64,000 bases of DNA, taken from Candidatus Melainabacteria bacterium 17Bon1m (lineage in GTDB: Bacteria > Cyanobacteriota > Vampirovibrionia > Obscuribacterales > Obscuribacteraceae). Each line of letters opens with the position of its first letter. Within the stretch, counting starts at the first letter, position 1. The notes beneath the pieces are model-generated. The model saw only the letters and a program-made list of their open reading frames with translations, had not been told where the DNA came from and ran no database searches. Location: assembly GCA_032128875.1 (NCBI GenBank), contig JAVLKG010000005.1, positions 416,001 to 480,000 of the forward strand, written 5' to 3'. Shown one piece after another: positions 1,791 to 57,024 of the stretch. Position numbers and translations under genes: made by a program.

Positions 1791-3023
1791 GTGGGCAAGT
1801 TAAAAACCTTCAGCCAACGCGTTCTGCGCCGACTGCGCAGAGAATTTCTCGGCGAGCAAACATCACCGTCTTGTGTGGTGGAAGACGTCTTTGCATATGT
1901 TACCGAGATTCCTTTTGGGCAATCTGTAACCATCGAAGAGGTGGCGGATAACACCATCAACTGGATAATGCCCGACTTTGGAATTGGAAGCGGCGGTCAT
2001 CTGAACATCTTTCGAATGATTTCGCGCTTGCAGAAATTGGGTTTTGAAAGTCGCATTATCATTCCCGAACTGGTTTGGTCGAAAACGGCGAAAGATGCCG
2101 AAGAGCGAATCAATCAACACTTCCTTCGGCTGGATGCTCCAGTATATGTGGGACGTGAAGATATTCCTTCTGCCTGCTTCTCGTTTGCGACTGCATGGAC
2201 AACTGCGTACTATCTGCGCGATTTTCAATCGACCGTGCACAAGTGTTATTTTGTTCAAGATTTTGAACCGTATTTCTATGCTCGCAGCACCGAGTCTGCG
2301 CTCTCCGAAGAGACCTATCGGTTTGGGTTTAAAGGTTTTGCCGCCGGCGATTGGCTAGCTTCCAAGTTGGTCCGCGACTACGGCATGGACGTAGAAGCCT
2401 TTCGTTTTTCCTATGATAAAGACCGGTATTGCGCGCCTTTAGAGCGCCGCTTGCAAACAAATAAGATCCTTTTCTATTCTCGTCCTCCTACCCCCCGGAG
2501 AGGTTTTGAGCTGGGCTATTTGGCCTTGAAGCAGTTGATTGCGCTCAAGCCGGAGCTGCAAATTTTGTTGGCGGGCTGGGATATTTCCAACTATCGTCTG
2601 CCTAAAGGCATGAAAAATTTGGGCATTGTGCCGCTCAAAGACTTGCGCGAACTGTATCAGGAGTGTGATGCGGCATTAGTCCTCTCTTTTACGAATTTGT
2701 CCCTCGTCCCGCTCGAGCTGATGGCTTGCGGTTGCCCAGTCATCAGCAATCGAGGCGCCAATGTTGAATGGATGCTCAACGATGAAATCGTTACTCTTGC
2801 AGAACCCACTGTTCATGGGCTTGTAACCGCTCTTCTAAAAGTGATTGAAGACCATCAAGGTGCTGAAGCAAAAGCGGAAGAGGCCTTGAAATATGTCCAA
2901 TCGACTGATTGGGACACGGAAACCTTAAAGTTGGCTACTTCTCTCAGAATGATGAACGAGAGAGAAAGGCAATCGGTATGCCGTGAGGAGAAGAGCGATG
3001 CGCAGCTCCAATCTCGAATATAA
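1791..3023 (+). CDS. WsaF-like GT4 glycosyltransferase (rhamnosyltransferase family)
   Basis: GSGGHLNIFR, FATAWTTAY, YFVQDFEPYFY, YSRPPTPRRGFEL, SLVPLELMACG. Confidence 0.85.
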   Translation: MGKLKTFSQRVLRRLRREFLGEQTSPSCVVEDVFAYVTEIPFGQSVTIEEVADNTINWIMPDFGIGSGGHLNIFRMISRLQKLGFESRIIIPELVWSKTAKDAEERINQHFLRLDAPVYVGREDIPSACFSFATAWTTAYYLRDFQSTVHKCYFVQDFEPYFYARSTESALSEETYRFGFKGFAAGDWLASKLVRDYGMDVEAFRFSYDKDRYCAPLERRLQTNKILFYSRPPTPRRGFELGYLALKQLIALKPELQILLAGWDISNYRLPKGMKNLGIVPLKDLRELYQECDAALVLSFTNLSLVPLELMACGCPVISNRGANVEWMLNDEIVTLAEPTVHGLVTALLKVIEDHQGAEAKAEEALKYVQSTDWDTETLKLATSLRMMNERERQSVCREEKSDAQLQSRI

Positions 3024-5328
3024 CGAAAAACTAGACCATTTGCGCTTTGCGGCATTCTTGCTGGTTTTGGTTTTCCATACATATCACCCGGTCTATTCTT
3101 GGCTCACAAATGCTGTTGGAACTTACGCGTATACGAGACCGGTGGATCTTCTTTCAATATTTGTCGTTGATGGTCACACGGGCGTAGCGCTATTTCTTAC
3201 CTTGAGTGGCTTTTTGTTTGCGCGCATTTGCAGCAGAACTCAAGGTTCATACTTTAGCGTGAGGAACTTCTACCTCAATCGCTTTCTTAGAATTTATCCA
3301 CTCTTCATTTTGATTTTGCTTATGGCCATCTTCTGGGGCGGCGCCCCTAACCCGTGGCCTTCATTATTGAGGTCTCTCCTAACCCTGCAAAATACTCCGG
3401 AAGCCGTTCATATCGACCAGCTAAATCATTTGTGGACTCTTGCCTGCGAATTGCAGTTCTATTTGGTTTTTCCAATTCTGCTGTGGTTGTATCGCTGCAA
3501 TCATGGTTTTACTTTGCTCATACTGTTTATGGGTATCGACGTTTTTGCCTTGGCGGTCAATTATCTGCAAGCTGGTGACACCCTCAGTCCGGCATATAGC
3601 ACTATCCTCGGGCGAATCAATCAATGTATCGTAGGCATGATGCTTGGGTTCACTCTTGAGAAATTTGAGCACCGACTGCGCAGTCCTTTGTTTTTACTTC
3701 TCTCTATCGGCATTCTCAGTGCATTACTGTTTGTCTTGCACAGCTGCGGCGGTACTGTTCTGGGTGGAACAAGCCCTATTTGGATTGTCTATCCAACATT
3801 AGAAGGACTGGCTTGGGCGGCTGTAATTGCTTCGTATGTGAGTTGTGATTTTCAATTGCCTCGTCCTCTGTCTCGCCTGTGTGCTGAGGGCGGTGCCTTG
3901 AGTTATTCATTGTATGTGTGGCACTTTTACTTTTGTTTGTTGATGATCCGCACTGTTTTACCGCTTTTGACAGATAAACAGCATAAGTTCGCGTGGCTTC
4001 TGGCAATGCAAGATTGGCTGATTGCACATCCTTTCTTGTCTGCCGTTGTTTTTGCCTTGTTTGTAGTTTTTCCTCCTACTTTGCTGGTTTCCATATTTAC
4101 CTACAAGTATGTTGAAGTTCCATTCTTCAACTTGCGACGAAGGTACATCTTCGAAAGTAGGGCAGAACAAGCGGATTCATGCGACCCAGCGTACGATTTT
4201 AAGAAGGCACTTCAGAATATCAATTTACAGATAAGTAAATTTGCCAAAGTGAGTGCGGTAGCCGCTGCTTCGATGGTTGTGCTTCTTGTTGGCTGCGAAC
4301 TTGCCTGCATTGCTTACGGAGTGCCGAAGAACGCGTTTCTTCAACCGGACGAGCAGCTCGGCACGGTGAGAATTCCGGGTCGGAAGCTTGAATGGACATT
4401 TGAAGGGTACTCTGCAGATGTACTGTCATCTGTCGGATTGCGTGACGTTGAGCATGCGAAAGAAAAGCCTCCTGGCGCAAAGCGCATAATGCTTATTGGC
4501 GATTCAATTGTTGAAGCTGTGCAGGTGCCTCTCGCGAATACTGCAGCGCGATTGTTTCAGCAAAAGCTCTACGGAGATGGATACGAAAATGTAGAAGTCA
4601 TAAACGCCGCGCATATGAACCATTCGCTCGGGCAGACAGTTTCTTACTACGACAGGCTCGCGCGTACATTCAAGCCTGATGAAGTCTATTTGGTGTTGGA
4701 CTCTTTCAATGGTGACATTAATCAGCGTGCCGCATCTGATTTTTCAGTTGAAGCGCGTCCATACTTCTACGTGACTAACAACTTTTTGCACGAGGACTCG
4801 ACACTTCTACCGTCTAAATTCGAGTGTCAAACATGGCGCCTATTGTTGCAGCATAGCCGCCTTGCAAATTGGCTAGTCAATCAAGATTTGCGGCTGAAGC
4901 TTGAGAATCACTGCTATCAGGTATTTGCCCGCGAGCTGTCAGTAGCGACGAGAAGTATCTCTGCTCGAAAAATTGAGTATCCTGCTCCCGATCGGCGCGA
5001 AGTCCGAAATGCTCTTCTCAGTTTTCTCAACAGAGTAGTAAATTCTCAAGGAGCAAAGCTGACCGTTTTCACGAAGTTCTATCCTACGCCGGACCTGACT
5101 CGCAGAGATTTCGAAGAGATATCTGACTTAAGTAAGCGTGAGCGTTTCAGTTTGGTTTCGCTGGATGAAGCCCTGATTAAGTCCGGTCCTGCTTGCTATG
5201 GCAAAGCGCATTTGACTGCACGCGGACAAGCGGTAATGTCCGAGAAGATGTACGAGACTTTCACAACTCGCGATACTGCAATTGCGAAGCTTAACTCTCG
5301 AAAAAATTTCCGAGATGTGTCAATGTAA
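2998..5328 (+). CDS. Acyltransferase-3 (OafA-like) fused to extracytoplasmic SGNH domain
   Basis: LDHLRFAA, GVALFLTLSGF, RFLRIYP, HLWTLACELQFY, SYSLYVWH, TYKYVEVPF; then an extra TM and LIGDS. ATG 2998 chosen from GAGGAG at 2985-2990. Confidence 0.85.
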   Translation: MRSSNLEYNEKLDHLRFAAFLLVLVFHTYHPVYSWLTNAVGTYAYTRPVDLLSIFVVDGHTGVALFLTLSGFLFARICSRTQGSYFSVRNFYLNRFLRIYPLFILILLMAIFWGGAPNPWPSLLRSLLTLQNTPEAVHIDQLNHLWTLACELQFYLVFPILLWLYRCNHGFTLLILFMGIDVFALAVNYLQAGDTLSPAYSTILGRINQCIVGMMLGFTLEKFEHRLRSPLFLLLSIGILSALLFVLHSCGGTVLGGTSPIWIVYPTLEGLAWAAVIASYVSCDFQLPRPLSRLCAEGGALSYSLYVWHFYFCLLMIRTVLPLLTDKQHKFAWLLAMQDWLIAHPFLSAVVFALFVVFPPTLLVSIFTYKYVEVPFFNLRRRYIFESRAEQADSCDPAYDFKKALQNINLQISKFAKVSAVAAASMVVLLVGCELACIAYGVPKNAFLQPDEQLGTVRIPGRKLEWTFEGYSADVLSSVGLRDVEHAKEKPPGAKRIMLIGDSIVEAVQVPLANTAARLFQQKLYGDGYENVEVINAAHMNHSLGQTVSYYDRLARTFKPDEVYLVLDSFNGDINQRAASDFSVEARPYFYVTNNFLHEDSTLLPSKFECQTWRLLLQHSRLANWLVNQDLRLKLENHCYQVFARELSVATRSISARKIEYPAPDRREVRNALLSFLNRVVNSQGAKLTVFTKFYPTPDLTRRDFEEISDLSKRERFSLVSLDEALIKSGPACYGKAHLTARGQAVMSEKMYETFTTRDTAIAKLNSRKNFRDVSM

Positions 5329-11396: not shown

Positions 11397-13208
11397 TTAC
11401 TTGTAGCTCTTGGAGATAATCAGCGGGAAGTTAGCTTCGACTGCTCTATCCTTGGCTTTGCGTGCAGCGGACAGCAATTGCTGGACCGAATCCCCGTCAG
11501 CGGGCAGATTGGCGACACCGAAAGCAAGCTTCAGGCTCTTCTTGTCCAGGTTTTTTATCAGTGGCGTCACTGTCAGAGTTTGCAGGATTCGGTTAGCGAC
11601 ATATGCGGCCGATGCGGTTCGCGTGTTCGGCAGAAGCAGTGCATATTCGAGCATCTCGTAGTGCCCTAGGATGTCTAGCGGACGCTTCACCATGTCAATG
11701 CGTCGGGCCGCGTTTTGCACCGCAGACGGTGGCAAAACATCAAACATGGTCTGCAAATCGCCGCGCTTTTGATTGCTGTCGTACTCTTTTTTTCTGTTCA
11801 TTTCAAAAAGAATGATAGACATTGGCCAGCCATAGGCTTCGAATCGATAAAACTCATGCTGCAGATAAAGCAAGAATGCAGAGTAGCTCAGCACGCCTGT
11901 TTCCTGGCGGACCATTGATTCTAAAAGAGCGTCTACTTCTTTCTTGCCATCGCCCAGAAAATCGAGTGCACCGACCTTTACTGCGTCCGGTGGCTTGATC
12001 TCAATTAATTCGCAAGTGAGGAAATTGAAAATCAGTGGAATCCAGTCAGCTGACTCCATCGGTCGGTCGCGCAAAAGATCGTTGAGCGAGTATTTGTGCC
12101 CGATTGTTTTATACACCTCAATCTGTTTTTCGACATTGAGAGGCTCGCCCTTGGTCAACATGAGGCGAACTTCCGTGTCGCCCAGATTGCGTGATTTCTT
12201 GACCAAGTACGCGTCCGTGGTGAGACCCATCCGCTCGAGATGTTTTTTCTTGTCGAGAAGGGCGATACCTTCCATGACTGTGTCCATCATCGGTTTGAGA
12301 ACATTGCGTACTTCTGTCTTTTCATCAGGGAAGAATGCAAATGTCCCTTTGCGCCAGGTGATTAGCTCTCGCACGGCGTTGTCGCCTAAGATACCGGCGA
12401 CGTGCGCGTACATGGCGACGCCGTTAAGGAAATAAATCTCTCCGACACTCTCGTCGCCGAGAATCTCCAGGCGGCCCGTTAATCCGTCGTTGTTCAAGTT
12501 CGACACTAAAGTCGACACTTGAGTGCTTTCGAGAGAGCCTTCCAATGACTTCGTCTCGAGCTGGGGTTCGGGAGCTGTAAAACGAGGACCGTGCTGCGAT
12601 TGTGAGGGCATTTTGTCGCCCAGATAATCGACGCCACCACTTTGTGGTTGCTGAAATGTGGAAAGAGAACCGGAAGACTGAGTAGGGTGAAAACTGCCTG
12701 AGCTGCTCGGCGAGCCCTCTGGATTATAGCCGGCAAGGTCGGCAGGATTTACGGCGGGGGGTGAATTGAAACCGCCCGACGCATCCTGAAACCTTGCTTC
12801 TGGTTGCATCGCGGGCACAGGCTGTGTCAGTGACGCATTCGGATCAAGCGCCGGCATCCCCGTTTTCGAGCGGTCCATGGCGCGAGTACTTTGCACCGAC
12901 ATACAAACCATGTCGTTTACCAGATCGAAATCACCAGACTCCTGCTGCCATAGCATCTGCGCTTCGGTGCCGTCATCTTCAAGCAAAGTCCAGAGCGGAT
13001 TATTTCTGCCGCTTTCTACTTTTACACTTAGGCTGTACGTCAAATTTGTGTTTGGTGCAACGAAAAGCTGCTCAACATCGCGGGGTTGGTTGTCCCGCGC
13101 TTGCTCGAACATGGATTGGTATATATCCATGGTCGGAATGTGTTGGATATTTGGAAGATTGATTCTGCCCCGGCTGGGCGGAGGTTGTGGCTTTTTCGAA
13201 CCAAACAT
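11397..13208 (-). CDS. DUF4388 (PatA-N) domain + degenerate GGDEF domain protein
   Basis: LEGSLEST..LTGRLEI..GEIYFLNG..ELITWRKGTFAF; C-terminal ETGVL..RPLDILGHYEMLEYALLLPNT..AFGVA; Pro/Ser/Gln-rich linker. Confidence 0.8.
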   Translation of the reverse strand: MFGSKKPQPPPSRGRINLPNIQHIPTMDIYQSMFEQARDNQPRDVEQLFVAPNTNLTYSLSVKVESGRNNPLWTLLEDDGTEAQMLWQQESGDFDLVNDMVCMSVQSTRAMDRSKTGMPALDPNASLTQPVPAMQPEARFQDASGGFNSPPAVNPADLAGYNPEGSPSSSGSFHPTQSSGSLSTFQQPQSGGVDYLGDKMPSQSQHGPRFTAPEPQLETKSLEGSLESTQVSTLVSNLNNDGLTGRLEILGDESVGEIYFLNGVAMYAHVAGILGDNAVRELITWRKGTFAFFPDEKTEVRNVLKPMMDTVMEGIALLDKKKHLERMGLTTDAYLVKKSRNLGDTEVRLMLTKGEPLNVEKQIEVYKTIGHKYSLNDLLRDRPMESADWIPLIFNFLTCELIEIKPPDAVKVGALDFLGDGKKEVDALLESMVRQETGVLSYSAFLLYLQHEFYRFEAYGWPMSIILFEMNRKKEYDSNQKRGDLQTMFDVLPPSAVQNAARRIDMVKRPLDILGHYEMLEYALLLPNTRTASAAYVANRILQTLTVTPLIKNLDKKSLKLAFGVANLPADGDSVQQLLSAARKAKDRAVEANFPLIISKSYK

Positions 13209-37666: not shown

Positions 37667-40600
37667 ATGCCTCGTCGCACGGATATCTCTAAAATCCTCA
37701 TCATTGGCTCCGGTCCTATCCGCATAGGTCAAGCTTGCGAGTTTGACTATTCCGGAACCCAGGCGTGCCAGGCGCTCCGCCAGGAGGGCTTTGAGGTCGT
37801 TCTGGTCAATTCCAACCCGGCGACCATCATGACCGACCCAGAAGTCGCTCAGCGGACTTATATAGAACCTTTGACCACAGAATTTGTGGAAGCGGTAATT
37901 GCACGCGAACGTCCGCAAGCGTTACTGCCGACAATGGGCGGGCAAACGGCTTTGAACATTGCGGTGAATTTGCACGACCAAGGCATTCTTCAGCGCTACG
38001 GTGTTGAACTAATCGGCGCAACTATGGAAGCGATCAATGTCGCTGAGGACAGGGCTCTTTTCCGCAGCAAGATGATAGAAATCGGCGAACCTGTGCCGCG
38101 TTCATTCATTGCGCATTCGCTAGAAGAAGTCGAAGAACACAAAGACGAGATCCCTTTGCCTTGCATCATTCGTCCTGCTTTTACTCTCGGTGGCACCGGC
38201 AGTGGTGCGGCTGACACTTACGAACAATTAGTGGCGGCCTGCCGCATCGGTTTGGCTGCAAGCCCTGTCAGTGAAGTTCTTATCGAAGAAAGCGTTTACG
38301 GCTGGAAGGAAATGGAACTCGAGGTCGTACGCGATAAGAAGGATAACTTCATCGTCGTTTGCGGCATAGAAAACCTCGATCCGATGGGCGTTCACACCGG
38401 CGATTCGATTACCGTCGCGCCGATACAAACGCTTAGCGATCGCGAGTATCAAAAGCTTAGAGATGCCGCAGCGAAGATTATCAGAGCGATTGGAGTCGAT
38501 TGTGGTGGTTCCAATATTCAATTCGCCGTCAACCCGGTGAATGGTGATTACATCGTCATCGAGATGAATCCGCGCGTGTCGCGTTCGTCCGCACTGGCAA
38601 GTAAGGCGACGGGCTATTCCATTGCTAAAGTAGCTGCGAAGCTCGCAGTCGGCTTTACGCTTGATGAACTCAAGAATGAAGTGGCCGGAATTTCAGCTTG
38701 TTTTGAGCCATCAATTGATTATGTGGTGACCAAAATCCCTCGCTTCAATTTCGATAAGTTCTACGGTGCAAAAGATGGTCTAGGTACTGAGATGCGCTCG
38801 GTGGGCGAGGTTATGGCGGTCGGTACTACTTTTGCCGAATCCATGCATAAGGCTCTGAGAAGTTTGGAACTCAATCTGGCTGGATTTACCGAAACGCCTG
38901 GACGTGCCGCAGCTACTCGTGAGCTATTGACCCAGAGACTGGCGACTCCGTCGCGCTATCGTCTCACCGATATCGCCACTGCTTATGCCCAGGGGTGGTC
39001 GGTTGAGGATGTGCAAAAGGTCTCGAAAATAGATCCGTGGTTTCTCCATAATTTGAAAGAAATTTGCGACAACGAGCGCGGTGCGCGAGCCGTAATTGCA
39101 AAAATCATTGAGAATTTCGGTGTCAAAGCACTCTTCCGCGAGTTTGAAGCGGGCTTGCTTTTGCGTCTCAAGCGCGAGTTCTTCAGCGATGCTCAAATTG
39201 CATCATTTATCAATTCGGCAGTTGGGCGTGAAGTTGCCACTGAAGGTGCCATTTACGCTTTTCGCCAACGCCTCGATTTGCGCCCGGTGTATAAGGCCAT
39301 CGACACTTGCGCCGGCGAGTTTCCCACTCAAACGAATTACTTGTACTCGACATTTGCTCCGGCTCGAGAAGAATACAAAGCTGACGACTCCCAGAAAGTG
39401 ATCATCCTGGGCAGTGGCCCGAATCGCATCGGACAAGCCATCGAGTTTGACTACTGCTGCGTTCAAGCCAGCTTGGCTATAAAAGAGCAAGGCAAGAAGT
39501 CGATCATTGTTAATTGCAATCCTGAAACAGTCTCAACAGACTACGATGTTTCTGATGTTCTCTACTTTGAGCCGCTGACTCTTGAATCAGTGAGCAATAT
39601 TCTTGCCGTAGAAAAGCCGCTTGGAGTGATTGTGCAATTCGGTGGACAAACGCCGCTCAATCTTGCCGAGAAGCTGGAAGCCCGTGGATTCAAGATTTTG
39701 GGAACTTCGGTGAAAGCAATCAAGCTTGCCGAAGATCGCTCCAGTTTTAGAACAGTTTTGTCCGAGCTGGGCATCAGGCAGCCGGAAGGCGCCATTGTTC
39801 ATACCCGTGACGAGGCGCTGAAAGCTGCACGCTTGTTGGGCTTCCCTGTTCTGCTACGACCGAGCTTTGTTCTTGGTGGAAAAGCGATGCACATTGCTCG
39901 CTCTTCGGACCACTTGCTCGAATTGATTGATTCTATTTTTGCGGCGTCGCCGGATCAGCCACTTTTGATCGATCGCTTTTTACAGCATGCTGTTGAAGTT
40001 GACGTTGATGCACTTTCAGATGGCGAGACGACTATCGTAGCCGGCATAATGGAGCACATCGAAGAAGCCGGAGTTCACTCCGGAGACAGTTCGTGCGTGC
40101 TGCCTTCGGTGTCTTTGTCCGAAGAATCAAAATCTCGCATTGTCGCTGCTACCGAAGCAATTGCTGAAAAACTGTCCGTCAAAGGTTTGATGAACGTTCA
40201 GTACGCTATCAAAGACGGTGAGCTTTACGTGCTTGAGGTAAACCCGCGTGCCTCGCGCACTGTTCCATTCGTTTCAAAAGCAACCGGAGTATCGTGGGCA
40301 AAGTTGGCGACCCGAGTGATCATGGGTGAAAAGTTGAGCGACTTGAAGCCGCTTATTCAGCCGGTCGACAATGGTTATGCCGTTAAGTCTGTCGTCATTC
40401 CTTTTGAGCGATTTGTCGATGCACAAGTTTGCCTCGGTCCTGAGATGCGCTCAACCGGTGAGGTTATGGGCCAGGGGGCGAGCTTCGAGGAGGCTTATGC
40501 CCGCGCGCAAATCGCGTCAGGAAAAGCCTTGCCAGTCAATGGACCGGTTCTTATTGCTGCCTCGGAGCATTTGATTGGTGAGGCGCTAAGTGTTGTTGAT

Positions 40601-40993
40601 GTTTTCCGGCGGCATGGCACCGAAGTGATTGTCACTTCCGAGGTTGCTGATTCATTCGATCCCATGAATGCTGATGCGGAAATTATTGATTTGACCAATT
40701 GGCGCATAGAGGACATAGCTGCCTGGATGAAGAAGGCTAACGTCAAACGCGTGGTCAGTTTGTCACCTTTCGACAAACTCTGTCCTGTTCAGGCGAAAGT
40801 TCGAAGAGCTGCCGTGGGACAGGCGATTCCATTGAGCATGACCACCAGAGATGCAATTGGTGTTAGCCAGGCAACAATGACGGTCTCGAAAATGAGTTTG
40901 CAGTTGAAAGCGATTCAAGAGCGCCGTGCTGCGGCTCCTCAGCCTCAATTCGCGGGCGCACCGGCAGCGCCGGTTGGCCAATTTACTATTTGA
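37667..40993 (+). CDS. carB: Carbamoyl-phosphate synthase large subunit with divergent C-terminal MGS domain
   Basis: [47 protein letters not shown], second ATP-grasp [39 protein letters not shown]. Confidence 0.96.
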
Positions 40994-41107
40994 AAAATTT
41001 AACCGCCTTTCAACCTGATATTTCAGTCAGGACTAGAGGTTGGCCTAAGGCTTATCATTGTGCCGGCGGCTTTCTTGCCGTCTTGCCACTAATCGGAAGG
41101 CGATAAC

Positions 41108-42946
41108 GTGACCGGAAAAGTTCGAATACTGGGGATCTCGGCTTATTACCATGACTCCGCCGCTTGCCTTGTAGAAGACGGTGTCATTGTTGCTGCGGCG
41201 CAAGAAGAGCGTTTCACACGGATAAAGGGCGATTCTAGTTTCCCTCACAATGCAGTTGGTTTTTGCCTTGAAACTGGCGGGATTACCGAAAAGGACATTG
41301 ATTATGTCGTTTTCTACGAGAATCCATACGCCAAGTTCGACCGACTTTTAACCACCTATCACGCTACTGTTCCGGCGAGTTTACCTTCATACCTGCGCAG
41401 TTTGCCGGTATGGTTGACTCAGAAATTGTGGATGAGAAAACAGATTTCCGAAGAGTTGGGCGTGAAAAAGCATGTCTACTTCTGCGATCACCACTTGTCG
41501 CACGCAGCCAGCGCCTTTTTTCCATCGCCATTTGAAGAAGCTGCGGTGCTTACGATCGATGGCGTCGGTGAATGGTCTACGACCACTTACGGCATAGGCA
41601 AAGGCGACGATCTGAAGCTGCTCAAGCACATTCGTTTTCCTAACTCACTTGGGTTGCTTTATTCGGCATTTACGTACTACACCGGCTTCAAAATCAATAG
41701 CGGTGAGTACAAATTGATGGGTCTTGCGCCTTACGGCAAGCCAATTTATGCACAGATGATCATGGAAAAACTGATCACCGTTGATGAAGAAGGTGCAGTT
41801 GCTCTTAACCAACATTACTTTGACTATGTTGGTGGACTGACCATGACTAATGCTCGTTTTGATGAGCTTTTCGGCGGACCTCCTCGGGAGCCGGAATCAA
41901 TCATTCGCCAGAAGGAAATGGATATTGCCGCGAGTATTCAGAAAGTTTTGAATGACGTCCTCATCATCATGGCTCGTCATGTGAAGGAAGCAACAGGAGC
42001 CAAAAACCTGGTGTTGGCCGGTGGAGTAGCGCTGAATGTAGTGTCTACTGGAATACTTTCGCGCGAAAAAATCTTCGAGCAAATCTGGATTCAACCGGCG
42101 GCTGGAGATGCCGGTGGCGCGCTTGGCGCTTGCCTCTGGATGTGGCATCAGGTTTTGGGCAAAGGCAGAACCGTTCAAAAGCCTGACTCCATGTCCGGTG
42201 CTTTCCTTGGTCTGGAAATCCCCGATTATTCCGAAGAGGATGATGCCGTGCTTCGCCGAATGGGCGCTGTTTGGCAAGAGATGGATGAAGAGACTCTGCA
42301 AGACGCAATTGCCGAGGCTATCGACAATGGAGAGATCGTTGCTGTAGCTAGAGGCCGCGCTGAATTTGGACCAAGGGCGTTAGGAAGCCGTTCTATTCTT
42401 GCCGATGCGCGCAGTCAGAAAATGCAAAGCCACTTGAACTTGCAGGTGAAGTTCCGCGAGAGCTTCCGACCTTTCGCTCCGATGGTTCTGGCTGAAGACG
42501 CTGAGGAATACTTTGATATTCCGCAAGAAAGTCCGTATATGTTGCTCTGTTACCCGGTTTTGGAAAAACAGAGAATTGCTGTGCAGGATAAGGGGCTGTT
42601 CGGAATCGATCTGTTGAAACAACCCCGCTCTAAGTTGCCGGCAATCACTCACGTGGATTACTCGGCTCGTGTGCAGACAATTGACAGAGACAGAAATCCG
42701 TTTATTCATTCTGTCATCAGCAAATTCAAAAGCCGCTCCGGCTGCTCGGTAATCGTCAACACGTCATTCAACGTGAGGGGCGAGCCGATTGTGAACACCG
42801 CAGAAGATGCATATCGCTGCTTTATGGCCACGGAAATGGACTGCGTGGTGATTGGAAATCGTTTCTTTAGAAGAAAGGACCAGCAGGAAAAACCGCTCAG
42901 CGAAGAAGAAAGATCTGCCTGGTTGAGGAGGTTCGACCTTGACTAA
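41108..42946 (+). CDS. O-carbamoyltransferase (NodU/CmcH/SxtI family)
   Basis: HDSAA, AQEERF, HHLSHAASAF, DGVGE, GEYKLMGLAPYG, EFGPRALG, KFRESFRPFAP, NTSFNVRGEPIV. Confidence 0.95.
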   Translation: MTGKVRILGISAYYHDSAACLVEDGVIVAAAQEERFTRIKGDSSFPHNAVGFCLETGGITEKDIDYVVFYENPYAKFDRLLTTYHATVPASLPSYLRSLPVWLTQKLWMRKQISEELGVKKHVYFCDHHLSHAASAFFPSPFEEAAVLTIDGVGEWSTTTYGIGKGDDLKLLKHIRFPNSLGLLYSAFTYYTGFKINSGEYKLMGLAPYGKPIYAQMIMEKLITVDEEGAVALNQHYFDYVGGLTMTNARFDELFGGPPREPESIIRQKEMDIAASIQKVLNDVLIIMARHVKEATGAKNLVLAGGVALNVVSTGILSREKIFEQIWIQPAAGDAGGALGACLWMWHQVLGKGRTVQKPDSMSGAFLGLEIPDYSEEDDAVLRRMGAVWQEMDEETLQDAIAEAIDNGEIVAVARGRAEFGPRALGSRSILADARSQKMQSHLNLQVKFRESFRPFAPMVLAEDAEEYFDIPQESPYMLLCYPVLEKQRIAVQDKGLFGIDLLKQPRSKLPAITHVDYSARVQTIDRDRNPFIHSVISKFKSRSGCSVIVNTSFNVRGEPIVNTAEDAYRCFMATEMDCVVIGNRFFRRKDQQEKPLSEEERSAWLRRFDLD

Positions 42947-43610
42947 GACTGCATTAGCTGAAAGAAACGAAGTTGCCTTCAGACCCAATCGCAATGCGCG
43001 GGGCTCAGGTCATGTGAGCTCTTACATGAAGCGCTTGAACGTGCGCAGAGAGCGCGCGGCTTTGAAAAACAACGTTATTTTTGGACTGACAATCGGCTGG
43101 GTGCTCACTTTGATGGGCGCTTTCAAAACTTACATTTTGCTTGAAAGCGGCGTGTCGCAGCTGATGCTGGTCGCTGGTGTGGCATTCCTCGGCACCACGC
43201 TTGTTGCGCCCGGACTGATGATTTATCCGCATAAAGTCATGAAAGGGATCGCTACTTTTGTTGGCACCAATTTGTTCAAAGGAATTCTTTGTGTTGTTTA
43301 TTTCCTGACTATCCTGCCTGCAGGACTTATCTACCAGAAGAAAAACAATCACGAACCCTTTTACTCATGGGCAGCGGGTAATGCTCCTAAGATTGAAGGA
43401 TGGACGGAAAAAATTGCCTCTGACGAAAATGGTAAGTCTTCCGAATACAGCTTGCCTGGTTGGCTGCAACCACTCTCTGTCGTGATCTATTTCGCGCGCA
43501 ACAGTCAGTTGCTTTTCCTTCCTTGCTTGATCGTACTTCTCATGCTCGGATTGATCGGAGTTTTTGTTCAAAGCAGTGCGTTGGCTCCATTTATATACAC
43601 ACTGTTCTAA
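42939..43610 (+). CDS. Fused SxtJ-like + SxtK/DUF5989-like membrane protein
   Basis: SxtJ-like FG..P..GIL..YF..ILPAG segment followed by a terminal TM helix ending QSSALAPFIYTLF; overlaps the carbamoyltransferase stop. Confidence 0.8.
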   Translation: MTKTALAERNEVAFRPNRNARGSGHVSSYMKRLNVRRERAALKNNVIFGLTIGWVLTLMGAFKTYILLESGVSQLMLVAGVAFLGTTLVAPGLMIYPHKVMKGIATFVGTNLFKGILCVVYFLTILPAGLIYQKKNNHEPFYSWAAGNAPKIEGWTEKIASDENGKSSEYSLPGWLQPLSVVIYFARNSQLLFLPCLIVLLMLGLIGVFVQSSALAPFIYTLF

Positions 43611-43634
43611 GAAGCTGTTTTAAGAGGAAGAGAG

Positions 43635-45215
43635 TTGCTGGAATTAGCTAGCAAGCCAAAAACAAGCAAAGCAGCTCCGCGTCATTTGTCCGCGGGGACT
43701 GTTGCTCTAACGTCCATCGGCTACTTTGCTGCGTCGCTTGCGATTATCGTCGGTGCTGCATTTGCTCTTGACCGCTGGATTATTCCCGAGATGGAAAATC
43801 GCGGTTATCTCGAATCTCATTTGTGGGCGGATGAAAATCATCAGCTCAATCACTTCACCTATGTGAAGAATGAAGCGCGTAAGGAAAACCCTGTCTGGCG
43901 TTCGCAGTATATTCCCGTAACTGCAGAGCATCCTGGCAAACAGCGAATTCTCGTTATCGGCGATTCATTTGTTTGGGGGGATGGTTCTAACAATGTGAAC
44001 ACCCTCTGGTGGCGCCAATTAGAGCTCGAGCTACAACATCGTGGCTACAACAACGTTGAAATCGTTGCGGCCGGATTGAATGGTGCCAGTACGCACGACC
44101 AGCTGAATTGGTTGGGTTCGATCTTGCCGAAATACACGCCAGATCTTGTGATATTTGGCTGCGTCACCAATGACGCCGATGAAAAGGATGCTAGCGGTAA
44201 GTCTTATGTGCGCATGATTCCGAAAGAATTGCCCGCACGAGAAAGTGCTGATTCTAAGCTGAACAGTCTCTTGCCAAATCTGTCCGGACAGTTGGAGCAG
44301 ATAAGTAAACTCTCGCGCCTGGCTCATTTGAGTCAGAAGTCCACAGCATTGGAATATGCAGATTGGGAACTTGCCTTGTTGAAAGGACAGAATTTCAAAG
44401 CGTATCAAAATACCGTTTCGTCTCTTGCTAATCAATTGAAAACCGCTGGTGTACCGGCCTTTGTAATTTCGCTTCCGGCTGGTTTTCAAAACAAGACAAA
44501 AGAAAACACAGCCGGCGGACAAAACTTCTTCGATAGTGTGAAGGCCTACAATGAGCAGCGTTTTTCCGCTTTTGCGCCAGTGTTCAAGTCCTCGGGTCTA
44601 CTCTTTGTTGATACGACCGAAGCATTCGCAAAGGCTGCATCTGCCGATCCCCGTTTGAAGTCGAGTGGCTCGCCTCTGCGTCTGGGAATAAATCCCAGCA
44701 ATGGACATCCTGGTCCGTTCTCGACCCACTTCTATGCTGTTTCTGCTGCCGATACTATCGAGCGAAATTTCCCTGCTCTCTTGACCAAAACAGCCAGTGC
44801 ATCCAATTCGACTGTTTCCAGATCAGGCGTTGAGATAAACGACTGCATGCCGCCGTATATGAACGTGCGTGCTGATGAGAAAGAGGCTGGCAGTTTTCAG
44901 TTCACCTATCCGCCTGATGTTGCTGAACATACTTTGTTCATGCCGTTGCGTCGCCGTCACGTTCAACTGTCCTTAAAAAAACCAGCTCAAGTTCATACCG
45001 TTGAAATCAGCGGAGACAACCTATCTGCTGCACAGATTTATCCGAGCTTTTTCGATGCCAAACTTGGCTACACGCCGGACGAATTCTCATCGTTGCCACT
45101 TAAAAAGGGAAATGTGCTTACCTGGAATTTGGGCGACAAACAACTGAGCGCACTCAAGATCCGCGCTAGCTTTAATGGCGGCAATCAGGCGCTCAAAATC
45201 CATTTTACGAACTAG
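43635..45215 (+). CDS. Membrane-anchored SGNH/GDSL-family protein (SxtL-like position)
   Basis: N-terminal TM, RILVIGDSFVWG, AAGLNGAST, VTNDAD, NPSNGHP. Confidence 0.8.
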   Translation: MLELASKPKTSKAAPRHLSAGTVALTSIGYFAASLAIIVGAAFALDRWIIPEMENRGYLESHLWADENHQLNHFTYVKNEARKENPVWRSQYIPVTAEHPGKQRILVIGDSFVWGDGSNNVNTLWWRQLELELQHRGYNNVEIVAAGLNGASTHDQLNWLGSILPKYTPDLVIFGCVTNDADEKDASGKSYVRMIPKELPARESADSKLNSLLPNLSGQLEQISKLSRLAHLSQKSTALEYADWELALLKGQNFKAYQNTVSSLANQLKTAGVPAFVISLPAGFQNKTKENTAGGQNFFDSVKAYNEQRFSAFAPVFKSSGLLFVDTTEAFAKAASADPRLKSSGSPLRLGINPSNGHPGPFSTHFYAVSAADTIERNFPALLTKTASASNSTVSRSGVEINDCMPPYMNVRADEKEAGSFQFTYPPDVAEHTLFMPLRRRHVQLSLKKPAQVHTVEISGDNLSAAQIYPSFFDAKLGYTPDEFSSLPLKKGNVLTWNLGDKQLSALKIRASFNGGNQALKIHFTN

Positions 45216-55467: not shown

Positions 55468-57024
55468 TTACTTCACTTCCAGAATCAAACCGCGATTAGC
55501 TCCTATGACTTTCGCAGATATGTTGATAGTGTTTATCCCTCGACCTTTTGCTTCCGGTAATTTCCAGGAGAGCCACGAGCCATTTTTGTTTCCGAGACTG
55601 AACATTTCGCCATTGTCGAAATGTTTTGCTGCATCCACATTCGTTATGTAGAGCGATGCGCCCTTGAGCCCTGTGCCTCCTAGGGTAATTTCCTTCGCAT
55701 TGATAGGCGTTTCTAAATTGAGCTCGATGAATGGCTTTCTCAAAGGCATATTGCGGAAGTCGTCCGCCAATTTCATTGGATATACAACAACAATTTTGTT
55801 GTCTGTCTGTTGGATTTGTAAATTGGGCGGAATGCAGTCGTTGACGCGTAACTGGGCGTCTTTCGATGTGGGCTCACTGGACTTTGTGCCAAGAATCGGC
55901 GCAAAATCCTTTTCTAAAACATCAGCCGCATGAACACCGTAAGCATATGTTGCCCATCTGTTCGGATGCGCGTTGGCAGGATTTACGCCAAAGGACAGGA
56001 CACCCTTTTTTACAAGGCTGTCTTCTTTTCTGGCTGCGTTGATCCATGTGTCGTAGCTGTCTACAACACGAACATCGCGATCCTCGAAGGCTTTTTTGAT
56101 CGGCGGAAAAACGCGATCATAATGTGCCTTGATTCCGTCGAAGTCGACTTTTCCAGGGCACTCATATGGCAAAAGCATGATGAATGAAGGGATGGAGAGG
56201 CTGTGCAGATAATTTGCTGTATTGTCGAGCGTTTTGCCGTACATGCTCCAGTTCTCGCCGGAAAGCAGGCTAAACTCCCAATTGGGCGGGTTATCCTTTG
56301 TGAATTCACCTGAGCGTGTCTTACGCAGATAAGCTTCCCGCAACGCGATCAGTTGATGTGAAAGATGTGGGTACAGTCCTTTGAATGCTTCGAGTAATCC
56401 ATTTTGGCGATGAGGACGGAATAGCAACTTCTGGTCGAAGTCTGCTGTTTGCATTCGCGACATTTCGTCTGCGTCATTGGGAATATATCCCCAAATCACG
56501 AGGTCAGGCTTGAATTTCGGGATTACCTTTTTGGCAGCATCGAGTTCTAAGCGCGTGTTTAAGCCCTGCATTCCGGCTGCGATTATTTCTACATCTTTGT
56601 AGCCGCGACGCTCCAATTCTCTGGCCAGCTGACGCCACCAGATGTCGTTCATGTTGTTGTAACCATGACCCCATACGAAAGAATCGCCAATTACCAGAAT
56701 GCGATGAGCTTTGGCAGACTTCTCTGCGACCGGCCACAAACTGGAGTGCCAGACAGGATTTTGATTGAGATCTGCTTTATTCCTGGCGTGTGCCCAGTAA
56801 TAGATGAAATCGTCCTCTTCTGTCCACGACGCTGAAACGATTTTGCCTTCGTCTTCCAAGGCAGGGATGATCAAGCGATCAAGCACAACAGAGACAAGCA
56901 AGATGAATGCCAGCGAAATCGAGAAATACTTAACGCTAAGTTGCGGAAATATTGCCGCTTTCGTATGAGGTTTCTCTGATTTTTCAGCGCTAATTTTTTG
57001 AGTCACTTCGCCGGCAGCAATCAC
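55468..57024 (-). CDS. Membrane-anchored SGNH-family protein, paralog of 43635-45215
   Basis: LDRLIIP, NPVW, RILVIGDSFVWG, WWRQL, PNDADE, NPANAHP, NDCIPP, MPLR shared with the paralog. Confidence 0.8.
   Translation of the reverse strand: MIAAGEVTQKISAEKSEKPHTKAAIFPQLSVKYFSISLAFILLVSVVLDRLIIPALEDEGKIVSASWTEEDDFIYYWAHARNKADLNQNPVWHSSLWPVAEKSAKAHRILVIGDSFVWGHGYNNMNDIWWRQLARELERRGYKDVEIIAAGMQGLNTRLELDAAKKVIPKFKPDLVIWGYIPNDADEMSRMQTADFDQKLLFRPHRQNGLLEAFKGLYPHLSHQLIALREAYLRKTRSGEFTKDNPPNWEFSLLSGENWSMYGKTLDNTANYLHSLSIPSFIMLLPYECPGKVDFDGIKAHYDRVFPPIKKAFEDRDVRVVDSYDTWINAARKEDSLVKKGVLSFGVNPANAHPNRWATYAYGVHAADVLEKDFAPILGTKSSEPTSKDAQLRVNDCIPPNLQIQQTDNKIVVVYPMKLADDFRNMPLRKPFIELNLETPINAKEITLGGTGLKGASLYITNVDAAKHFDNGEMFSLGNKNGSWLSWKLPEAKGRGINTINISAKVIGANRGLILEVK

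Follow-up and report, generated by a model that had tools for sequence, protein, structure and literature searches.

How might a bacterium place carbamoyl groups on a surface polysaccharide outside its cytoplasm? The question is raised by four adjacent genes in the genome of Candidatus Melainabacteria bacterium 17Bon1m (7.55 Mb in 35 contigs), located within the 64,000-nucleotide stretch analysed here, hereafter the window, which spans positions 416,001 to 480,000 of contig JAVLKG010000005.1. Between window positions 37667 and 45215, four open reading frames (ORFs), all on the + strand and overlapping or separated by gaps of 24-114 nt, encode in order a second carbamoyl-phosphate synthase large subunit (carB2), an O-carbamoyltransferase (CT), a small membrane protein that ends in the hexapeptide FIYTLF, and a membrane-anchored SGNH protein. 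An initial annotation of this DNA had assigned the same identities, coordinates and strand, which are borne out by our ORF and profile matches, and had read the block as a carbamoylation counterpart of the Dlt system. We tentatively interpret it in a similar sense, with a confidence that stops just short of an even chance, as an MBOAT-free tyrosine relay for extracytoplasmic O-carbamoylation of surface polysaccharide. Analogy suggests that such a relay would be built like the MBOAT-SGNH acylation systems (Dlt, PatAB and Alg), with no MBOAT among its parts.

The evidence that carries this interpretation starts at the C-terminus of the membrane protein. Read directly from the sequence, its residues 218-223 (43590..43607, + strand) form the hexapeptide FIYTLF, a candidate shuttle motif in which Tyr220 is encoded by 43596-43598. 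According to PMC12148441, DltX and bacterial MBOATs end in the shuttle motif FXYXXF, whose tyrosine conveys the acyl group to the SGNH partner, and the tail of PatA reads FIYANF; PMC11035591 gives the DltX tail as FLYFGF and describes it as predicted to face outside. The membrane protein likewise carries its C-terminal FXYXXF hexapeptide after a transmembrane helix, as MBOAT-SGNH systems do. The pattern is rare in this genome: a count over its 18,235 stop-to-stop frames (100 aa or longer) gave 16 with the ending [FLM][ILV]Y..F, and these comprise 14 MBOATs (PF03062), all with F[IV]YFQF, the 223-aa protein and one stray frame of 122 aa. Because so few frames carry the motif and 14 of them are MBOATs, the tail is more than chance, and its early assignment as an acyl-shuttle-type tyrosine motif agrees both with the published FXYXXF and with the genome's own 14 MBOAT tails. 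Even if the relay is wrong, a motif that marks only MBOATs and a 223-aa protein in a 7.5-Mb genome needs explaining.

The membrane protein that bears this tail (223 aa, 42939..43610, + strand) ends in APFIYTLF, and the start of its gene overlaps the stop of the CT gene by 8 nt. Its last transmembrane helix and tail (residues 184-223, 43488..43607, + strand) form a DUF5989, or SxtK-like, module, which matches PF19451 over profile positions 10-49 of 49 scoring 37.7 bits in the full-length protein and 42.1 bits as a fragment (cut-off 27). The direct match of the protein to SxtJ (PF19588) is weak, at 11.4 bits against a cut-off of 24.4, and is aligned to positions 6-91 of 99. When a hidden Markov model (HMM) was seeded with residues 28-160 of the membrane protein, it led to 34 stand-alone ORFs next to DUF5989 genes, of which 28 pass the Pfam SxtJ cut-off, one falls under it and five have no match. 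Since 28 of the 34 pass, profile comparison indicates that the membrane protein is a divergent SxtJ fused to an SxtK-like module, the link to SxtJ being transitive only. As to the families, the "SxtJK" label of the initial annotation fits this DUF5989 membrane protein with a terminal FIYTLF, although its SxtJ part stays below the Pfam threshold and J and K are here a single fused ORF. Stand-alone SxtJ proteins (loci L025-L099) have a conserved C-terminus of their own, approximately E-[KR]-[PQ]-[FY] after a very basic stretch, and this end is lost in the fused forms.

A phmmer search of 1.84 billion representative sequences returned 206 relatives of the membrane protein at E<=0.001, mostly fused forms of ~200 aa, and the pattern [FLMSV][ILV]Y..F ends 139 of the best 150 of these 206, the remaining ones looking truncated. 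Cyanobacterial DUF5989 genes found by the Pfam model, and not by the motif, end in FIYTLF or FIYSIF in all 29 of the 29 top-scoring hits; Y220 and F223 are also invariant in alignment A1, whose members were chosen for the tail. When 64 stand-alone DUF5989 sequences were compared by hhalign with the C-terminal 49 aa of the 14 MBOATs, the helix and PFIY fell in register (P 2.7e-4, probability 41%). The AlphaFold2 model of the membrane protein (pLDDT 83.1) has helices at residues 28-66, 72-89, 91-136, 174-187 and 191-222. A fold search of the Protein Data Bank (PDB) with this model gave no match at E<=0.001, the best rows being unrelated helical proteins with TM-scores of 0.15-0.24, and an MBOAT-like fold, for which this search held no hint, was set aside. 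The 51-aa tail fragment had no sequence match in the PDB at E up to 10.

To place the membrane protein in a wider context, we scanned one genome per species for APFIYTLF, which gave at least 600 pattern matches and 112 confirmed relatives, and kept 80 loci. The locus scan was seeded with a 40-sequence subset sharing LAPFIYTLF, so that these loci are biased to the consensus tail and give no measure of its conservation. Distances such as "within three genes" count ORFs of at least 100 aa, and a locus is called well-flanked when 5 kb or more are available on each side (47 loci); Pfam annotation covered 133 neighbouring ORFs, and an iterated HMM was used for a further 50. The loci represent Cyanobacteria, Planctomycetes, Acidobacteria, Bacteroidota, Proteobacteria, Nitrospira, Omnitrophota, Actinobacteria and other phyla, with cultured carriers among Bradyrhizobium (L035), Reyranella (L064) and Hoeflea (L033), and 77 of the 80 have a recognisable tail ORF. 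Of these 77 loci, 55 have a CT within three genes of the tail gene, as do 38 of the 47 well-flanked ones, usually in the order CT-SxtJ-DUF5989 or SxtJ-DUF5989-CT. One database protein of 801 aa (P0140) is a natural CT-SxtJ-DUF5989 fusion ending in PLIYPIF, which ties the three parts together and gives the SxtJ part a cytoplasmic N-terminus. CT, SxtJ and DUF5989 are thus a conserved core over many phyla. Of 301 genomes sampled in the phylum of the source genome, 49 have a DUF5989 score above the Pfam cut-off.

MBOATs are missing from these surroundings. An HMM built from the MBOATs of this genome had 0 matches among the ORFs of the 80 loci (~10 kb range), none lies in the window, and the nearest one in the genome is ~10 kb past the window end. 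The MBOAT that loads the tyrosine in Dlt, Pat and Alg systems accordingly has no counterpart in the window or in the 80 loci, and the block is MBOAT-free as originally claimed. This bears on the possibility that the DUF5989 tail is a trans-acting, DltX-like microprotein that serves one of the genome's MBOATs with an ordinary acyl group, the proximity of the CT reflecting a shared polysaccharide locus. The genome does hold 14 MBOATs, and PMC12148441 describes DltX as a separate microprotein serving an MBOAT. However, each of the 14 MBOATs has its own tail, none of the 80 loci shows an MBOAT within ~10 kb, and the CT is the constant neighbour of the module, to which it is fused in P0140. In addition, a Pfam search at E up to 10 gave the tail fragment only DUF5989 and ODV-E18 and not DltX, a negative limited by the HMMER filters, which drop most weak matches. 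We consider service to the MBOATs in trans very improbable.

Two further observations concern the forms of the tail gene. In a genome of the same genus (G007, locus L113), another fused SxtJ-DUF5989 gene lies 20 kb away from the first one; it has no adjacent CT, and the gene after it encodes a 514-aa protein that is not matched by the SGNH HMM described below. Apparent DUF5989 fusions in L063 (550 aa), L045 (494 aa) and L069 (285 aa), whose N-terminal parts have no Pfam match, were taken as over-extended frames and rejected.

What would supply the carbamoyl group? The CT (612 aa, 41108..42946, + strand) is an O-carbamoyltransferase of NodU/CmcH/TobZ type, predicted to be cytoplasmic, and has both domains of that architecture, Carbam_trans_N (Kae1-like, 308.8 bits) and Carbam_trans_C (YrdC-like, 228 bits). 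It does not reach the NodU equivalog NF041651 (144 bits against a cut-off of 1000), and it is the sole full copy in the genome. Upstream of it, carB2 (1108 aa, 37667..40993, + strand) is full-length by both NF003671 (1484.6 bits, cut-off 599) and TIGR01369 (1393 bits, cut-off 1027). The genome has two full carB genes, a copy on contig C2 (1491.5 bits) and the window copy (1392.8 bits), with an identity of 54-55% between their products, and a single carA, on C2. The window carB is an extra paralog directly upstream of the genome's only full carbamoyltransferase.

The order carB-CT-membrane protein recurs in three genomes of the same genus (L111, L112 and L114); outside the genus, carB adjoins the cassette in only 2 of 77 loci (L071 and L082). 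Treating the cassette-linked CarBs as a group of their own was tried and rejected, as these share 53% and 40% identity with the window copy, against 54-55% for the housekeeping paralog. We conclude that carB is a lineage-specific addition, outside the conserved unit. Its initial assignment as the donor enzyme of the cassette is favoured by its identity and by the same-genus order, and is weakened by how seldom it is adjacent elsewhere. That scarcity, together with the finding that cassette-linked CarBs are no closer to one another than to the housekeeping copy, would also be expected if the four genes were neighbours without a shared function, with carB2 serving arginine or pyrimidine synthesis and the others being unrelated members of the locus. 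A chance arrangement of this kind is nevertheless hard to credit, because the carB-CT-JK order is kept in the three same-genus genomes, the genes overlap or lie close together on one strand, and the CT-J-K core is conserved over phyla.

The fourth gene (43635..45215, + strand) starts 24 nt after the membrane protein gene, with the stretch AAGAGGAAG just 5' of its TTG start, and encodes a membrane-anchored SGNH protein of 526 aa (Lipase_GDSL_2, 34.4 bits) with an N-terminal anchor at ~20-46, an SGNH domain at ~100-384 and a beta-rich C-terminal domain at ~400-526. The SGNH blocks are recognisable in 70 homologues: G109, D110 and S111, the block I G-D-S with its nucleophile (Ser111 codon, 43965..43967, + strand), are invariant, as is His358 of block V (codon 44706..44708, + strand), and for G147, G150 and N179 conservation is 90% or more of the sequences. 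The AlphaFold2 model of this protein (pLDDT 91.4, pTM 0.90) confirms the SGNH fold, its domain 100-384 matching 7ddy_B with Z 16.0 and an rmsd of 3.3 over 190 aligned residues. The top Foldseek row is a two-domain esterase acting on acetylated mannans, a match that fits a sugar-binding role for the modelled C-terminal domain.

An HMM iterated from the window SGNH found 48 relatives in 37 of the 80 loci; Pfam, applied to 22 of the SGNH neighbours called in this way, recognised 20 as GDSL-type at E<=0.001, several of which score below the gathering cut-off, and left 2 without a match. Relatives become sparser with the number of gene steps from the tail gene: 17 of 146 ORFs are relatives one step away, 12 of 135 two steps away and 7 of 126 three steps away, whereas the more distant ORFs include 12 of 537. 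For steps 1-3 together (36 of 407 ORFs), the odds ratio against this remainder is 4.2 (Fisher's P 7e-6, for loci that are not independent). Gene order gives further examples of the association. In two same-class genomes (G039 and G033, loci L116 and L117) an SGNH gene (442 aa) stands inside the cassette, in the order CT-SxtJ-SGNH-DUF5989, and in Trichodesmium erythraeum IMS101 (NC_008312.1, locus L099) four SGNH paralogs of 400-409 aa stand in tandem after SxtJ and DUF5989, with no CT within four genes. A 3.6-kb contig of a Pyrinomonadaceae metagenome-assembled genome (L062) has DUF5989 between an SGNH gene and an AT3 acyltransferase gene, and some cassette-linked SGNH proteins (L049, L051 and L065; 405-751 aa) carry C-terminal TPR repeats.

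Searched against its own genome, the iterated SGNH HMM matches 21 of 13,426 ORFs, 11 of which adjoin 9 of the 14 MBOATs. Because an HMM built from these 11 MBOAT-adjacent proteins matches 37 ORFs in DUF5989 loci, with up to 128 bits and all among the 48 relatives, many DUF5989-linked SGNHs appear to belong to the MBOAT-partner family, and by the same profiles the window copy would be a divergent branch. The latter has three paralogs in the genome (234-292 bits). The 14 MBOAT genes, spread over contigs C1-C5, C8-C10, C23 and C29 (loci L103-L110), form an unusually large MBOAT-SGNH set, in which an SGNH/DUF1574-type gene stands beside the MBOAT in 9 of the 14 cases by the first HMM and in 4 more by the MBOAT-partner HMM.

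If the SGNH protein were to receive a group from the tail, both should lie outside the cytoplasm. An N-terminal anchor is present in 94 of 98 SGNH homologues and in 46 of the 48 locus relatives, and the net charge changes from +2.2 ahead of the anchor to -0.8 behind it. Because of this positive-inside charge bias, the SGNH catalytic domain is predicted to be extracytoplasmic, and the adjacent gene would supply the membrane-anchored SGNH partner that such systems have. In the 64 stand-alone DUF5989 ORFs, K+R is 4.08 on the N-side of the helix and 0.14 on the C-side; since the bias lies on the N-side, these modules are predicted to be N-in and tail-out, as in DltX. Predicted complexes were also considered, as the initial annotation had proposed. 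When the SGNH protein and the membrane protein (residues 28-223) were co-folded, the score was 0.45, compared with 0.01 for the best of three controls, the runs agreed in 46% of contacts or more, and the partner pLDDT was at least 56. The mark used is reached by 58 of 80 solved complexes and by 2 of 110 mismatched pairs, although passes at or below 0.60 include only 7 of the 80 solved complexes and both of the passing mismatches. The co-fold is weak support for a complex between the two proteins and raises its odds only a little.

Taken together, these parts would allow the following relay. Carbamoyl phosphate would come from CarB2, a clear member of its family that may have a dedicated role here, and would be used by the cytoplasmic CT, whose family is equally clear, to activate the carbamoyl group by a chemistry like that of TobZ-type enzymes. 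The CT would dock on the SxtJ-like/DUF5989 membrane protein, as the gene overlap, the conserved neighbourhood and the three-way fusion suggest, and the carbamoyl group would be loaded onto Tyr220 of the FIYTLF tail in a covalent step proposed from the match of the tail. The tail, predicted to lie outside, would then pass the group to Ser111 of the SGNH protein and from there to a glycan hydroxyl. The membrane could be crossed in two ways, either through a conduit formed by SxtJ or by loading the tail before the C-terminal helix inserts.

A number of observations weigh against this relay, beginning with the tail itself. The similarity between DUF5989 and the MBOAT tails is gone without the last 7 residues (hhalign P 0.12), and because the signal is lost in this way, the likeness is a shared terminal motif at a fixed distance from the helix and not demonstrable homology; the tail is also modelled with low confidence (pLDDT 46-55). 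The topology of the fused protein conflicts with itself. The fused form is K/R-rich at the N-terminus, in loop 2-3 and at both linker ends before the last helix, and stand-alone SxtJ has, like the fused form, a strongly basic C-terminal region after its third hydrophobic segment. The three hydrophobic segments thus have a cytoplasmic end on either side, and either the third of them (residues 113-132, conserved at L117, Y121, P127 and G129) would be re-entrant or the tail would be cytoplasmic. The extracytoplasmic location that the initial annotation assumed is thus predicted for the SGNH domain and for the stand-alone DUF5989 tail, whereas the charge pattern of the fused protein leaves its own tail ambiguous. 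The CT, moreover, needs cytoplasmic substrates while the tail is predicted outside, and no conduit is evident; the fold search gave no match at E<=0.001. Carbamoyl-serine enzymes are usually slow in turnover, which makes a ping-pong step via Ser111 less obviously workable than with acetyl.

The SGNH protein adds further difficulties. It lacks the canonical DxxH Asp, the position 3 before His358 being variable (Ser in the window) within a consensus NPxNGHPG, and it reaches just 20.1 bits (E 2.2e-4) with the MBOAT-partner HMM. Its fold is about as close to PatB (7tlv; Z 14.3, rmsd 4.6, 194 aligned) as to the esterase match, and the modelled fold does not, in itself, separate transferase from esterase. 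While an SGNH relative lies within three genes in 20 of the 47 well-flanked loci, 27 of these loci have none at that distance, and one same-genus genome has a non-SGNH gene after the cassette. The expected co-occurrence of all four families consequently holds for the CT-SxtJ-DUF5989 core and for fewer than half of the well-flanked loci in the case of SGNH: the proposed partner is adjacent here, enriched beside the tail gene and often of the MBOAT-partner family, but it is not universal, and the window copy matches that family weakly.

Several of these points favour the main rival of the relay, in which the CT carbamoylates a lipid- or nucleotide-linked sugar on the cytoplasmic face and SxtJ/DUF5989 only hold the CT or join it to the assembly machinery. 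The tail would then serve docking or stability, and the SGNH protein would be an independent periplasmic esterase or transferase, for example one trimming carbamoyl or acetyl groups, a role proposed for SxtL. Such a division of labour accounts for the well-flanked loci without a nearby SGNH relative, for a fold equally near to esterases and PatB, and for the lack of a visible membrane route. It also agrees with a paralog of the SGNH protein elsewhere in the window (55468-57024, - strand; 518 aa, 292 bits, Lipase_GDSL_2 26.2 bits), which has no adjacent tail gene, CT or MBOAT. To our knowledge, the known O-carbamoyltransferases of this family (TobZ, NodU and CmcH) act alone in the cytoplasm on soluble acceptors. 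Reviews group SxtI, SxtJ and SxtK together as the carbamoylating unit and regard SxtL as possibly a hydrolase. On the other hand, a tether does not require a near-invariant terminal Tyr and Phe in the register of MBOAT tails, and it leaves aside why MBOAT-partner SGNHs should be over-represented right next to the tail gene and even found between J and K. On balance we judge this rival unlikely. The relay retains our tentative preference: the families, the tail, the MBOAT-free core and the SGNH enrichment speak for it, although neither SGNH nor CarB is general and the topology of the fused form conflicts.

A broader version of the relay is more doubtful, and we put it forward with clear reserve. 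It holds that DUF5989 (SxtK) is a carbamoyl-tyrosine shuttle, that SxtJ and the CT are its MBOAT-independent loader, and that CT-SxtJ-DUF5989(-SGNH) cassettes carbamoylate outside the cytoplasm. Tyrosine-shuttle acylation, as in Dlt and PatAB, has recently been worked out and has so far been tied to MBOAT or AT3 membrane enzymes; the cassette has the same tail, often the same kind of SGNH, and a soluble CT in the place of the MBOAT. If the relay is correct, it would be the first tyrosine shuttle independent of MBOAT or AT3 and the first proposed route for polymer carbamoylation outside the cytoplasm. Carbamoyl would join the groups moved by tyrosine shuttles, and a function would be available for three families without one since 2008, with a concrete role for SxtJ, for SxtK/DUF5989 and perhaps for SxtL. 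Envelope glycans would be modified here, and perhaps saxitoxin precursors where the cassette belongs to an sxt cluster, and the reach would extend to many phyla. A full-text literature search found the term DUF5989 in no paper, supplements and the 2023 paper that defined the motif being outside that search. The same kind of search found no paper combining carbamoyltransferase, SGNH and MBOAT and no relevant paper linking an acyl shuttle or MBOAT to carbamoyl; co-mentions of DltX and carbamoyltransferase were unrelated genome or transcriptome studies.

The surroundings of the block fit a glycan target. Pfam annotation shows a polysaccharide locus with GT2 and GT4 transferases, Wzy_C, an ABC-2 transporter and epimerases, together with a sulfotransferase, methyltransferases and an AT3-SGNH fusion. 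The neighbouring ORFs in the survey (133, by Pfam) are likewise mostly polysaccharide genes, with some unrelated contexts, and the original placement of the block in a surface-glycan locus is therefore upheld. The AT3-SGNH fusion of the window (2983-5328, + strand) is a 781-aa AT3 acyltransferase of OatA type whose C-terminal part is matched by the SGNH HMM with 90.9 bits, and a DUF4388 and GGDEF protein within the polysaccharide locus (11397-13208, - strand) hints at c-di-GMP control. Between 35700 and 45500, a promoter scan gave 5 sites against a mean of 8.5 in shuffled sequence and a terminator scan gave 10 against 11.6, so that neither scan gives operon boundaries.

How does the cassette compare with systems already described? 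Dlt (DltA/C as donor, the MBOAT DltB, the microprotein DltX and the SGNH-like DltD), as set out in PMC12148441 and PMC11035591, shares with it a small single-pass module with an FXYXXF-type tail, an enzyme in the cytoplasm that makes the donor, and an extracytoplasmic SGNH partner held by a membrane anchor. The cassette differs in having neither an MBOAT nor a carrier protein, and in the proposal of carbamoyl instead of D-alanyl. Likewise, DUF5989 is not detected as DltX by sequence, and in the window the module is fused to an SxtJ-like domain. PatA/PatB-type MBOAT-SGNH pairs, including this genome's 14 MBOATs with DUF1574/SGNH, have the same C-terminal P-F-[IV]-Y-x-x-F after the last helix and an SGNH family that is common to many of the DUF5989-adjacent SGNHs. 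In those pairs, however, the tail belongs to the MBOAT and is loaded from acetyl-CoA inside the membrane, whereas the only candidate loader in the window is a soluble, ATP-dependent CT, and the likeness is confined to the last 7 residues. AT3-SGNH proteins of OatA type, according to PMC12148441, also have a membrane module that loads a tyrosine feeding an SGNH domain, but the membrane domain and donor are different and the AT3 tyrosine is not in a C-terminal hexapeptide.

TobZ, NodU and CmcH share the two-domain Carbam_trans_N/C architecture of the window CT, which fails the NodU equivalog model; unlike the CT of the proposed relay, they act alone, as far as we know, on soluble acceptors. The saxitoxin cluster offers another parallel. 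According to PMC2885083, sxtJ and sxtK adjoin sxtI and SxtL is GDSL-like, so that sxtI-sxtJ-sxtK with sxtL brings together the same families as the cassette, namely a CT, SxtJ (transitively), DUF5989 and an SGNH/GDSL protein nearby. That sxtIJKL is the same cassette, as the initial annotation held, is supported by these families; as to the contiguity sxtI-J-K-L, the papers place only J and K next to sxtI. Saxitoxin papers from 2010 to 2026 describe SxtJ, SxtK and SxtL as uncharacterised or as "working in conjunction" with SxtI, and in a 2026 bioRxiv preprint J and K are "hypothesised to work in conjunction" with SxtI. The comparison, made by published descriptions, also brings out how the two differ: in the saxitoxin cluster J and K are separate genes and the acceptor is a small alkaloid, whereas in the window the two are fused and the proposed acceptor is a polysaccharide.

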